In this document: one piece after another, positions 13,552 to 39,549 of the stretch
Position numbering within the stretch: the first letter of the stretch is position 1
How the letters are laid out: every line of letters starts with the position of its first letter
Source of the DNA: a virus
DNA: 64,000 nucleotides
Strand: one strand, 5' to 3'
IMG/VR virus record: IMGVR_UViG_3300049460_000196
Coordinates: 32,001-96,000 of that record
Position numbers and translations under genes: made by a program
The notes under the pieces: generated by a model
Seen by the model: the letters and a program-made list of their open reading frames with translations, nothing else
Database searches by the model: none
Told to the model about the DNA's origin: nothing

Positions 13552-13779
13552 TTGGGAGTCACATATTATGCTGATTTTGTTTTTGACCATCTGAAGTTGA
13601 TTATTGAACTTGATGGTCGGCAACATCACCAAACTGTTGAATATGATTCCCGACGAGATGCGTATATTACCGCCAACTACGGGCTAAATGTGATTCGCAT
13701 AACTGCAAAGGAATATTTCAATAAAACAAGGGTCTCAGAGATTGAGACCCTTTTGATGCTACGCGGGGCAGGTCATTAG
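13552..13779 (+). pseudogene. DUF559/Vsr-like endonuclease fragment
   Basis: YYADF...LIIELDGRQH...RDAY...VIRI; frame extends upstream without a Met. Confidence 0.6.
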
Positions 13780-13780
13780 A

Positions 13781-13859
13781 CCGTCCGAGGGGATTCGAAC
13801 CCCTATTCCCAGCTCCAATTACGCTTCATGAGGTAGAAGCTCACGGCGGCTACAGACGG
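13781..13859 (-). tRNA. Atypical tRNA-Arg(TCT), D-loop displaced into the variable region, no CCA
   Basis: Acceptor CCGTCTG/CGGACGG, loop CT TCT AC, canonical T arm; TAATTGGA follows the anticodon arm. Confidence 0.6.
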
Positions 13860-13898
13860 TCTAATGACCCGCTCCCGATGTGGGAACAGGTCGGAGGA

Positions 13899-14384: not shown

Positions 14385-15273
14385 TTAGTACCACTGAGAT
14401 TACATGGTCCTCGTTGACGCTTCGAACATTATTAGCCAGGATTGCGTCCCAACCTTCTTTCGATATCCACTAGAGCCCCTTTCGGGTAATCTAGTACGCC
14501 AACATCATCGCCGTTTTAAGTCAGGCAGTAGACTTGACACAGGGTGCTATTCTACGACTTTCCATCCGTTGACATTCGACTGCCATTAGAGCTTGCGGGC
14601 CCTACGAACTTCTTTTCATAAACCAACTAGGCCTTGCGAGCTTCGCTGAACTTGATTAACTTTCGTCTCAAGTATTAGATGATTTTCACACCCTGCCGAG
14701 GTAGACTTTGCATTTTGTATAAGTAAACGGTTTGATCGTTCGCTCTTTCTCCAATGAAAGTGCCATTTCTGGCGTGCAACTCACTGCGACGTGCTACCTC
14801 AGCTGCTCCAAAGTCTTTTGGACTCCAGAATACAACACGCCACGTATCTTTCGCCTCGCGGGCTACCGGATCGTCTTTCTCGACTAATGTCCACACCCTT
14901 GCGGATAGTCCACCAACCGATAAAACTGCATCATACCTCTTGGGTGCGACCCCTCGAAACATAACACTACCTTTCCCCGTACAAGATGGCAAGTTGGATT
15001 TGTGATGAGACTCGGCTCCCGCCATGTTCTCCCTCAACTGATGTTCCCTAACGAGCAAGCCCGCTAGGCATCTAAGCCAAGGTTCTTTCCATCACTCTTG
15101 CGTCCCAATTATCTCCAGGATAACCTGAAGTGCTTCCTTTCGGAAGCCGGGTCGGCTTGCATAACAGAACCACTTGCATGGCGCGGCTGCGTGAGCTTGA
15201 CCGCTTTCCCCGGGTTGCCCCGGCTCTTCCTTCCAATATACGGCAAGCCGTATACCGTGGAGCTATGCCCCCA
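14385..15273 (-). ncRNA. Large structured ncRNA, GOLLD-like
   Basis: ~890 nt with no convincing ORF and many GNRA-capped hairpins; segments GTGTTGTATT...CAAAAG, GACTTAAAA and terminal GTAATCTCAG match my recollection of GOLLD; next to tRNAs. Confidence 0.6.
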
Positions 15274-22476: not shown

Positions 22477-22539
22477 CTGCTACTCCGTGTTCGTTTATCT
22501 TGTTCCTATTATAGGCGTAGATGAACAAACAATCAAGTA

Positions 22540-22752
22540 TTAGTCACGTTTGTTTGCCAGTTCGTTCAACTGTTTGCTGAGGTCGGCGTCGGTTTCGGCG
22601 GTGATCACGCCCAGCTTAACCATGTTGTTCATGGTACCACGATACACTTCAAACTCGCGGTTATCGAACGACTCAACCATCACGTGCTCGCGACCAGTGT
22701 CGCTGTCGAAGGTGTCGTAGTTGTGTTTGATCTGCGCGTTGATGATATACAT
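22540..22752 (-). CDS. Hypothetical protein
   Basis: 70 aa, SD AGGAG, promoter upstream. Confidence 0.7.
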   Translation of the reverse strand: MYIINAQIKHNYDTFDSDTGREHVMVESFDNREFEVYRGTMNNMVKLGVITAETDADLSKQLNELANKRD

Positions 22753-22817
22753 GGTCGCTCCTGCATTTGTGTAGAATCACATTATAGACGCAGATGAACA
22801 GAAAATCAAGTAATATT

Positions 22818-23095
22818 TGGTGGACCAGAGCGGAATTGAACCGCCACGACGTCGCGAACGTCTTTCCCAGTGCGGAGGACTTGTACTCACCTGAGTAGCC
22901 CAGCGAAGCACCAATACATGATGCTTTGGTGGACTATGGGGACTCGAACCCCCTCTCCCTGGCCCGTAATGATCAGCCTCGTGGGGCTTGTCCCACAATC
23001 TCCGCCATTAGATGTAGCGGTGCTGAATCACGCTTCTGAAGCTACTCGCTTGAAGCCGATCATTACGAGCGACTGTTGCCAGTCACCCAGCTGGT
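22818..23095 (-). ncRNA. Tandem Ala-acceptor tRNA-like RNAs
   Basis: Two T arms, each followed by ...GTCC-A-CCA (ends at 22818 and 22927); 15 bp stem in the upstream unit; D arms atypical. Confidence 0.5.
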
Positions 23096-33884: not shown

Positions 33885-33961
33885 TGGTTGCGGATGGGTG
33901 GATTCGAACCACCGACGTAGAGGTTATGAGCCTCCTCTTCTGACCACTGAATTACACCGCA
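33885..33961 (-). tRNA. tRNA with CAT anticodon (fMet-like, bulged acceptor)
   Basis: CT CAT AA, CCA. Confidence 0.75.
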
Positions 33962-36980: not shown

Positions 36981-37056
36981 TGGTGGACGCGGTGGGGTTC
37001 GAACCCACGACCTTCGGATTAAGAGTCCGTTACTCTACCAGCTGAGTTACACGTCC
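36981..37056 (-). tRNA. tRNA-Lys(CTT)
   Basis: Cloverleaf, CCA. Confidence 0.92.
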
Positions 37057-37062
37057 GTACTG

Positions 37063-37138
37063 TGGTGGAAGTGGAGGGACTCGAACCCCCGTCGCACCGG
37101 TTAAGAGCCGGGCCTCTAGCCTGTTGAGTTACACTTCC
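37063..37138 (-). tRNA. tRNA-Lys(CTT)
   Basis: Cloverleaf, CCA. Confidence 0.88.
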
Positions 37139-37151
37139 AAGTGTATTTGAT

Positions 37152-37239
37152 TGGTGGGAGCAGTGGGGATCGAACCCACTCTGGACTTTCGTCTCGCCGG
37201 ATTAAAAGTCCGGTGCCTACCCAATTCGGCATTACTCCC
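37152..37239 (-). tRNA. tRNA-Lys(TTT) with long variable arm
   Basis: CT TTT AA; variable hairpin GAC-GAAA-GTC. Confidence 0.82.
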
Positions 37240-37249
37240 TGTGAAACAA

Positions 37250-37324
37250 TGGTAGGGCCGCAGGAGCTCGAATCCTGTTTGTCTGGTTAAAAGCCAGATA
37301 CTTCACCATTAAAGTTTCAACCCC
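37250..37324 (-). tRNA. tRNA-Lys(TTT)
   Basis: CT TTT AA, CCA. Confidence 0.85.
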
Positions 37325-37395
37325 TTTGATTTGACGTGGCACACGTCGATCTCGGGGGTGGCAGGAGCAATCCAATCAAACAACTACACTTGGAA

Positions 37396-37440
37396 TTACT
37401 TAGTCACCCCCGAAAGTTTGCCAGATTTGTCACTTTCCAT
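37396..37440 (-). CDS. Lys-containing micro-ORF MESDKSGKLSGVTK (candidate leader)
   Basis: SD AAAGGAG; 3' part TCGGGGGTGAC pairs with GCCACCCCCGA at 37342-37352. Confidence 0.55.
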   Translation of the reverse strand: MESDKSGKLSGVTK

Positions 37441-37470
37441 GACAGGCTCCTTTCAGAAATGTAATTTGGA

Positions 37471-37593
37471 TATTGCGATTTACCAGGTATCCCAATGACG
37501 AGACCAATCGCTCCAACAGGCTGGAGTTCCAGATGATGCGCATTCAACTCGCGTTGACCATACGTGCCACTCACGGCATAACACCTCGCAATA
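37471..37593 (-). ncRNA. Unknown structured RNA
   Basis: Closing stem TATTGCGA/TCGCAATA with internal hairpins. Confidence 0.4.
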
Positions 37594-37598
37594 AAACT

Positions 37599-37674
37599 TG
37601 GTGGAGGATATCGGGATCGAACCGATGACCTTTAGCTTGCAAAGCTACTGCTCTCCCAGCTGAGCTAATCCCCC
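37599..37674 (-). tRNA. tRNA-Ala(TGC)
   Basis: Canonical, G3-U70. Confidence 0.93.
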
Positions 37675-37764
37675 AGGGTGGCAATGTTTGTACCGGTATG
37701 GCAAACATCACCCGCACATGCCGACTAGAACCTTTTCAGGGGATGAGGACATGAACGTTTAACT

Positions 37765-37841
37765 TGGTCTCCAGTGCAAGATTCGAACTTGCGCCCCATG
37801 GTCCCAAACCACGTGGATTAACCTGACTTTCCTAACCGGAG
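37765..37841 (-). tRNA. tRNA-Pro(TGG)
   Basis: TT TGG GA, CCA. Confidence 0.88.
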
Positions 37842-37890: not shown

Positions 37891-38148
37891 TTAATCGATT
37901 GTACCGTTGACTTTTATTTGTACAAGATCGCTAAACATTTTAGAGATCCCACTCAACTCATTCAAATAATCTTCCGTCAACTTATCGTCTTCGGTTAATT
38001 CAACTTTTAAATTAAGTTCAGCTCTTTGTTCTTGTACTTGTTTGTGAATAAGTGCAGTGGCCACTTGCAATGTGTCGATTGGTAAACTACTCGCCAACAT
38101 AGCTACTGCATTCCGAAGTGCCAATATTTGTACTTGAGTTGATGACAT
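37891..38148 (-). CDS. Hypothetical protein (cassette cargo)
   Basis: 85 aa, SD AAGGAG; stop lies exactly at the insertion junction. Confidence 0.7.
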   Translation of the reverse strand: MSSTQVQILALRNAVAMLASSLPIDTLQVATALIHKQVQEQRAELNLKVELTEDDKLTEDYLNELSGISKMFSDLVQIKVNGTID

Positions 38149-38283: not shown

Positions 38284-38637
38284 TTATCTTTTCTTGTTAC
38301 CCCAGGTAGGGGTCTGTCTGTGGCAGTTTGGACACAGAAATCTCAAATTATCTGGATGATTGTTGGTCTTTACCCCATCCATATGGTCGATATCCAAACT
38401 AAGTGGTTTACCGCACCAGTCACTTACTGCACAACATGAACAGGCATAACCGTCGCGTTCCGTTAAGAACTTGATCATCGCCGGGCTATTATAATGAACA
38501 GCACCTTGCAATATTTTCGGTTTGGTAACCGATATCCAGGTAAATGCGTGTTGGCATTTGTTCGAGCAGTATTTGCCATTAAATGCTGGCGGTTTATACT
38601 TTGTTGGTTTACCACAATTGATACATGATCTTTCCAT
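38284..38637 (-). CDS. HNH endonuclease
   Basis: CINCG..YCSNKC; LDIDHMDGVKTNNHPDNLRFLCPNCH; TATAAATA upstream. Confidence 0.9.
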   Translation of the reverse strand: MERSCINCGKPTKYKPPAFNGKYCSNKCQHAFTWISVTKPKILQGAVHYNSPAMIKFLTERDGYACSCCAVSDWCGKPLSLDIDHMDGVKTNNHPDNLRFLCPNCHRQTPTWGNKKR

Positions 38638-39474: not shown

Positions 39475-39549
39475 TGGTGCCCCAGGATGGAATCGAACCA
39501 CCGCACGCTGCTTACAAAACAGCACCTCTACCATTAAGGATACAAGGGC
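39475..39549 (-). tRNA. tRNA-Thr(TGT)
   Basis: TT TGT AA, CCA. Confidence 0.85.

Follow-up and report, generated by a model that had tools for sequence, protein, structure and literature searches.

The amino-acid operon attenuators (trpL, hisL, pheL, thrL and leuL), the translation-attenuation leaders of ermC and cat, and the arfA message, whose features are textbook knowledge, are the systems to which the locus described here is compared. The attenuators resemble it in having a short ORF led by a Shine-Dalgarno sequence (SD) upstream, with cognate codons and an overlap with a helix that depends on the ribosome; the ermC and cat leaders, in that RNA is refolded by a stalled or moving ribosome and transcription termination is not involved; and arfA, in that a stop codon is removed by RNA processing (RNase III in the arfA mRNA; RNase P would do so in the fused members of the family described below). 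In the current view, phage tRNAs either are passive supplements or serve as decoys that counter tRNA-cleaving defences, PrrC-type defences destroy tRNA-Lys, and we know of no regulation specific to one phage tRNA. The target of the PARIS effector AriB is also tRNA-Lys, and phage T5 escapes it with a tRNA-Lys of its own (PMC11464382); PMC10264068 deals with anticodon nucleases and phage tRNAs.

The DNA analysed here (the window, 64,000 nucleotides) comprises bases 32001–96000 of the 113-kb IMG/VR record IMGVR_UViG_3300049460_000196; the completeness of the record was estimated by CheckV at 27%, from which its source is taken to be a megaphage. A short SD-led ORF in front of four tRNA-Lys genes is read as the megaphage copy of a widespread phage leader ORF that is dedicated to tRNA-Lys and acts as a Lys-tRNA-sensing, structure-remodelling switch; the probability of this reading is put at about 0.5.

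Micro-ORF, hairpins and tRNA genes of the window

The window contains approximately 54 tRNA genes, every one of them on the minus strand, together with a tmRNA and a GOLLD RNA. The tmRNA (22538–23017, minus strand; ARAGORN) lies inside the tRNA region and bears on the non-stop explanation considered below; the GOLLD RNA (14391–14843, minus strand; Rfam RF02032, 203 bits vs gathering score 150) adjoins tRNA-Arg(UCU) (13779–13867). Two further tRNA-like genes (33889–33960 and 39478–39549, minus strand) were scored by Infernal at 51.8 and 50 bits and were not called by ARAGORN; an HNH-endonuclease-like ORF with a C-terminal CPNCH motif (38284–38637, minus strand) is placed between tRNA-Gln and tRNA-Val in the array. 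At the head of the array (41078–40877, minus strand) there are a promoter-like site (41387–41360), an ORF of ca. 48 codons and a terminator consisting of a stem and a U-tract (ca. 40912–40877); with its terminator, this element is unlike the Lys leader.

The Lys leader sits in a spacer of 274 nt (37325–37598) that is bounded upstream by tRNA-Ala(UGC) (37599–37674, minus strand; ARAGORN; Infernal 63.8 bits) and downstream by the Lys tRNA block. The order of the block given by a first-pass annotation, made from the letters alone, was upheld: tRNA-Lys(UUU) (37250–37324), tRNA-Lys(UUU) with a long variable arm (37152–37239), tRNA-Lys(CUU) (37063–37138) and tRNA-Lys(CUU) (36981–37056), all on the minus strand. 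The last three were obtained with both ARAGORN and Infernal, and the first with Infernal only (47.2 bits vs gathering score 29), because its folded acceptor stem contains three G.U pairs, G1.U72 included. In other phages (L313, L316, L339 and others), a tRNA body of the type of this first gene is fused straight to the mini-ORF. The pair G1.U72 atop the acceptor stem recurs in many phage tRNA-Lys(UUU) genes (e.g. 37250–37324, minus strand, L313, L316, L041 and L204), and the genes that have it carry discriminator A and an encoded CCA.

The strong SD and the frame with AAA, AAA and AAG codons that had been noted ahead of the block were both confirmed on the minus strand. The SD (AAAGGAG, 37453–37447) is placed 6 nt 5' of the ATG; the ORF (37440–37396) consists of 14 codons plus TAA (MESDKSGKLSGVTK), with the start ATG at 37440–37438 and the stop TAA at 37398–37396. 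Lys is encoded by codon 5 (AAA, 37428–37426), codon 8 (AAA, 37419–37417) and codon 14 (AAG, 37401–37399); the first two are the invariant pair of the family and the last is an additional third. SD sequences are used by many genes of the window phage, and the layout AAGGAG-6 nt-ATG also heads a nearby 85-aa gene at 38148. On shuffling of the 274-nt spacer (20,000 times), an SD (at least 5 nt) with an ATG was produced in 5.3% of the cases, and an SD with an ATG and an ORF of 8–20 codons with at least three Lys in none (0/20,000); the arrangement is not due to chance. Folding placed the AUG in a 5-bp hairpin (UGUCA, 7 nt, UGACA; 37428–37444, minus strand); as a family feature it has weak support, the family profile showing conserved positions −5 to −1 with no clear compensatory changes.

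The first-pass annotation had also paired the 3' half of the ORF with sequence just downstream. The pairing stands, as an 11-bp stem with one U.G pair, the 5' arm of which (37405–37415, minus strand) lies within ORF codons 9–12; its partner, the 3' arm (37350–37360, minus strand), is not just downstream, being separated by a loop of 44 nt. A second hairpin (37333–37347, minus strand; 6 bp, 3-nt loop) has no U-tract behind it. The upstream half of the spacer (37456–37598, minus strand) forms a closed multi-branch domain in the minimum free energy fold (z = −2.3 for the whole spacer) and is the most variable part of the spacer in the relatives from runs X2 and X8. No promoter-like site was found in 37325–37598; a search with Infernal against Rfam 15, including T-box and other curated cis-regulatory families, gave nothing in the same interval beyond chance-level rows, and no repeats of the spacer were found within the 113-kb record.

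The leader family in other contigs

Comparison of the spacer and of the array with cultured phages by DNA similarity gave tRNA matches or chance AT-rich matches only; exact and peptide-degenerate patterns of the window ORF gave zero matches in viral contigs. The 21 matches of a stem-only pattern had no other similarity and were set aside as chance. Three related megaphage records (G001–G003) were reached through a neighbouring protein; their tRNA arrays are reshuffled, their Lys blocks were located via the tRNAs, and the spacer has no DNA match in any of the three. In G003 the spacer before the Lys tRNAs contains an antisense ORF instead; in G001 (complete, 524 kb) a spacer of ca. 350 nt before the Lys block contains an SD-led ORF of 14 codons that shares K-S-x-K-L-x-G-V with the window ORF.

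A degenerate pattern derived from the window and G001 ORFs was scanned over viral and metagenome contigs and gave 129 sites, 92 of them within ordinary long ORFs and 37 in short ones; tRNA-Lys(UUU) came next after 12 of these 37, and another tRNA type after none (0/37). In the fused copies of this 12-member set the tRNA starts 29 nt past the A of the ATG, and the final sense codons of the ORF are the 5' strand of the acceptor stem; examples of the fused form are L040, L041, L105, L247, L196, L204, L235 and L280. A pattern of SD, ATG and octapeptide, applied to viral contigs, gave at least 101 short ORFs in at least 101 contigs, a set in which SD, ATG and parts of the peptide are imposed by the search, as they are in all samples other than the tRNA-pattern and core-only ones. 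Among the matches listed, 98 of 101 mini-ORFs were followed by tRNA-Lys(UUU), 95 of them at an offset of 28–30 nt, two at 38 nt, where 9 nt are inserted, and a single one at 86 nt, and no other tRNA type was seen; of the three without a called tRNA, two are at contig ends and one has a tRNA-like fold that ARAGORN does not call. With the tRNA beginning 28–30 nt after the ATG, the ORF reads into the tRNA. The question that had been attached to the micro-ORF at the outset, whether homologs elsewhere are followed by Lys tRNAs, was thus answered in the affirmative: every callable downstream tRNA was tRNA-Lys(UUU) (98/101 among the matches listed; 12/12 in the smaller set).

The members are diverse. 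At least 63 distinct peptides were counted among the matches listed, and among 75 distinct units in the same matches the tRNA bodies behind the leader have at least 34 distinct 5' 25-mers. A conserved 14-nt motif (TATAAAAACACATT) stands directly after the tRNA-Lys CCA in 48 of the 75 fused units (e.g. L196, L204, L291 and L299).

A less biased sample was taken with a pattern for the anticodon arm and T-loop of tRNA-Lys(UUU) (120 loci, 1437 distinct tRNAs). An ORF of the SDKSDK type was carried by 4/122 sampled tRNA-Lys(UUU), and one more (L247) had a variant rich in Lys and Arg that forms a link to the G001 ORF. ATG ORFs with a strong SD that read into the tRNA were found at 8/122 tRNA-Lys(UUU) vs 4/1315 other tRNAs (odds ratio 23, p = 8e-7). 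A core-only pattern, with neither SD nor ATG required, gave eight matches on binned prokaryote genomes; three of the eight lie in tRNA arrays, and all three of those have SD, ATG and tRNA-Lys(UUU). The samples free of pattern bias give few members, namely 4–5 of 122 tRNA-Lys(UUU) and the three array matches. No leader copy was found in the cultured-phage collection searched; in Vibrio phage VH7D only a weak-SD, TTG-start frame was found upstream of tRNA-Lys, and it was not counted as a member. In two viral contigs (L210 and L281) a different SD-led ATG frame lies 22–28 nt before tRNA-Lys(UUU), starts with M-G, has one Lys codon and is inside a small palindrome; this frame may be another leader type.

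The family octapeptide is M-x-S-D-K-S-[D/G/E]-K, in which codons 5 and 8 encode Lys; the eight residues at the N-terminus of the window ORF (M-E-S-D-K-S-G-K) recur unchanged in fused members. The SD of the family (GGAG core) is placed 6–8 nt 5' of the ATG, a range into which the 6 nt of the window fits, and the G+C-rich helix starts 5 nt past the second Lys codon, 28–30 nt past the A of the ATG. The end of the ORF is not conserved (8–19 codons), and the insertions seen in the leader are 9 nt long. Pairing between leader and trailer in the fused members was no better than in shuffles (−9.6 vs −9.3 kcal/mol).

In the fused family the core AGTGACAAGAGTG, which is a direct 9-nt repeat, is nearly invariant, synonymous positions included (AGT 58/59, AAG 59/59), and the near invariance of the third codon positions implies a constraint at the nucleotide level beside, or instead of, a coding constraint. 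On this basis, the leader could be a signal that acts at the nucleotide level 5' of tRNA-Lys, for example an RNA structure or a site for processing or protein binding, in which the frame is incidental or secondary; the conservation of the non-coding positions −5 to −1 (CTGTC) is in line with it, as are the repeat and the fixed synonymous positions of the core. Against it stand the deeper lineages (the window, L397, L359, L349, G001, L105 and L247), which differ in their nucleotides and all share the SD, ATG and frame, together with a pair of Lys codons spaced two codons apart and the 5-nt gap to the helix; the persistence of SD, ATG, frame and both Lys codons despite changed nucleotides is seen in the window, G001, L105, L247 and L397. 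Both Lys codons are kept in every lineage, and the neighbouring positions vary. The dipeptide K-S is preserved through the switch AAG AGT to AAA TCT, counted as four base changes (window, L397, L359 and L349), which also speaks for coding, and the exclusive association with tRNA-Lys among the matches listed is not explained by a generic processing site. A purely nucleotide-level signal is considered unlikely, with a real share of probability left to it.

The hairpin form in megaphages and a possible mechanism

When the window was compared with fused members by offset and alignment, the hairpin was found to correspond to an acceptor-like minihelix (37353–37411, minus strand) with a 7-bp stem (GGGGGUG/CACCCCC). 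The 5' strand of the helix starts at 37411, at an offset of 29 nt from the A of the ATG, just where the fused members have tRNA +1; a D-arm-like stretch survives in the 44-nt interior and aligns to the D-arm region of the fused tRNA-Lys. No tRNA match was obtained over the 59-nt hairpin 37411–37353 (Infernal, RF00005, E up to 10). The first intact tRNA-Lys(UUU) of the window is at offset 116 from the ATG, and the helix at 29 is outside any intact tRNA. From these comparisons, the window hairpin is taken to be a decayed tRNA-Lys cut down to an acceptor-like minihelix, the stem of which has been lengthened to 11 bp; this origin as a remnant acceptor stem was absent from the first reading of the locus.

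Similar arrangements were found in two other megaphages. In L397 (424 kb) a 14-codon ORF with a helix at offset 29 (GGGAGUC/GACUCCC) is followed after 11 nt by two tRNA-Lys(UUU), the intact tRNA-Lys(UUU) being at offset 86; in G001 the 3' half of the ORF has an 11-bp pairing just downstream, with a stem sequence unlike that of the window, and then Lys tRNAs CUU/UUU/CUU. The stem differs on both strands (GGGGGUG/CACCCCC in the window, GGGAGUC/GACUCCC in L397 and G001), the interior ranges from 15 to 44 nt, and ORF and helix are kept in all three lineages. In the window and in the two other megaphages, what is left of the fused tRNA is an acceptor-like hairpin before tandem tRNA-Lys genes.

Among close relatives, a contig from run X2 spans 37063–37771 at ca. 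95% identity. The differences listed fall in the hairpin interior (37379–37384), which carries indels in this relative, at 37342 in the small hairpin, where the pair that closes the loop is affected, and in the spacer further upstream (37512–37584), and none of those listed touches SD, ORF or 11-bp stem; this pattern is suggestive of retention of the leader. Runs X8 and X20 cover the locus partially. In a soil metatranscriptome (X13) two records of 151 nt match 37295–37445 and 37147–37292, the flanking coding DNA being without cover, which is a weak hint of transcription of the leader/Lys region.

The loss of the tRNA body, to the point that Infernal returns no match, the absence of a canonical fused unit from the window and the indels in the hairpin interior of the X2 relative would all be expected if the window ORF and hairpin were an evolutionary remnant of a leader–tRNA-Lys unit with no present function. 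A functionless remnant is held to be quite unlikely: three megaphage lineages keep the SD, the ATG, the Lys codons, the stop and a perfect stem of at least 11 bp with compensatory differences at an equal offset, the stem exceeds the 7 bp of an acceptor stem, and the differences listed for X2 spare the ORF, the SD and the 11-bp stem.

Thought very unlikely is a functional product of the mini-ORF, be it a short peptide or, in fused forms, a non-stop message programmed by RNase P cleavage at tRNA +1. The stop codon of the fused form is inside the tRNA (nt 8–10 or later), the N-terminal octapeptide is conserved and the window phage encodes a tmRNA of its own, all of which would suit such a product; the C-terminal part and the length vary freely, eight residues offer little from which to build a folded effector, the stop of the window ORF is in the hairpin loop and not behind an RNase P site, and the exclusivity for tRNA-Lys and the invariant Lys codons are left unexplained. 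A classical trp-type transcription attenuator before the Lys block (leader peptide, alternative hairpins and intrinsic terminator), for which the short SD-led ORF with cognate codons and the three mutually complementary segments of G001 might be cited, can be dismissed with hardly any reservation, because no stem with a U-tract occurs anywhere in 37325–37598 on the minus strand, where neither hairpin is followed by a U-tract, and the fused forms leave no room for a terminator.

The first-pass proposal of a translation-coupled switch for the Lys block therefore survives in part: a Lys-linked element is well supported by the homologs, the enrichment and the pairing kept with compensatory changes in two megaphages, and a classical attenuator, with no terminator present, is not what it is. 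The sign and output of the switch are ones that we only infer, and PrrC, which had been brought in as a link, is context and not evidence.

For the leader ORF as a Lys-tRNA-sensing switch, the geometry allows the following mechanism. Counted from the P site, the mRNA helicase of the ribosome begins unwinding at a distance of about 11 nt. When the A site holds the second Lys codon, the helix would have its first base pair ca. 11 nt from the first P-site base, at the mRNA entrance; a ribosome waiting for Lys-tRNA would thus park before an intact helix, and one supplied with Lys-tRNA would proceed and unwind it. In the fused form, the supplied ribosome would unfold the tRNA-Lys precursor. In the window form, unwinding would free the 3' arm (37360–37350); in the next tRNA-Lys, the 5' strand of the acceptor stem (37324–37318) is partly complementary to this arm and could then pair with it. 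In a fold with a ribosome-sized mask over the 3' half of the ORF, the 3' arm re-paired with the 5' strand of the first tRNA-Lys, a gene with a weak acceptor stem. The same complementarity between 3' arm and tRNA was found in L397; for G001, folding under a mask led to several structures in competition and to no clear switch. The complementarity could reflect descent by tandem duplication. In this manner the supply of Lys-tRNA would feed back on how tRNA-Lys precursors fold and are processed; the least certain step is the sign of the response.

The mini-gene is found joined to a tRNA-Lys in more than a hundred further phage contigs, so that it is probably a ribosome-operated sensor that ties lysine-tRNA production to supply. 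As a broader proposal, advanced tentatively and at somewhat less than even odds, a ribosome-gated tRNA would form a new class of cis-regulation, in which leader codons let the ribosome test the supply and then leave the precursor folded or unwind it, and in which the megaphage hairpin would be a derived relay to a tandem block. If this is true, the ribosome-gated tRNA would be a built-in homeostat or alarm for tRNA-Lys, the target of PrrC-type and PARIS defences; phages would monitor the decoding of codons whose tRNA is a favourite target of defence, and tRNA precursors could be acted on by the ribosome directly. With its ca. 50 nt, the element is fully defined.

Comparison with known systems

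Full-text literature searches turned up no publication that describes a phage tRNA with a leader ORF, and the Lys-leader element is apparently undescribed. The defences that cleave tRNA-Lys (PMC11464382, PMC10264068) give a reason for several divergent phage tRNA-Lys and for possible monitoring of Lys decoding; the two papers describe tRNAs and not a leader ORF. In the cultured phage T5 (locus L408, AY543070 32162–32407), T5.065 is annotated as an ORF of 55 aa whose TAA stands directly against +1 of tRNA-Lys(UUU), and its N-terminal part contains S-D-K-R-L-G-K. It differs in having no N-terminus of the SDKSDK type at the junction and in not reading into the tRNA; the resemblance is at most a loose parallel.

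Towards arfA there is no sequence similarity; the Lys-leader product has 8–19 residues and a variable C-terminus, and the stop of the window ORF is not behind a tRNA 5' end. As for the cognate-codon enrichment by which trpL-type leaders are recognised, 3 Lys were counted in the 14 codons of the putative leader, two of them invariant across lineages. The trpL-type attenuators differ in that the Lys leader is without an intrinsic terminator and has two or three cognate codons, not a run; they control biosynthetic enzymes, whereas the Lys leader precedes tRNAs and mostly reads into the regulated RNA itself. The ermC and cat leaders unmask the ribosome-binding site of a protein gene and sense an antibiotic, whereas the proposed Lys leader would act on a tRNA precursor or minihelix and sense the supply of Lys-tRNA.
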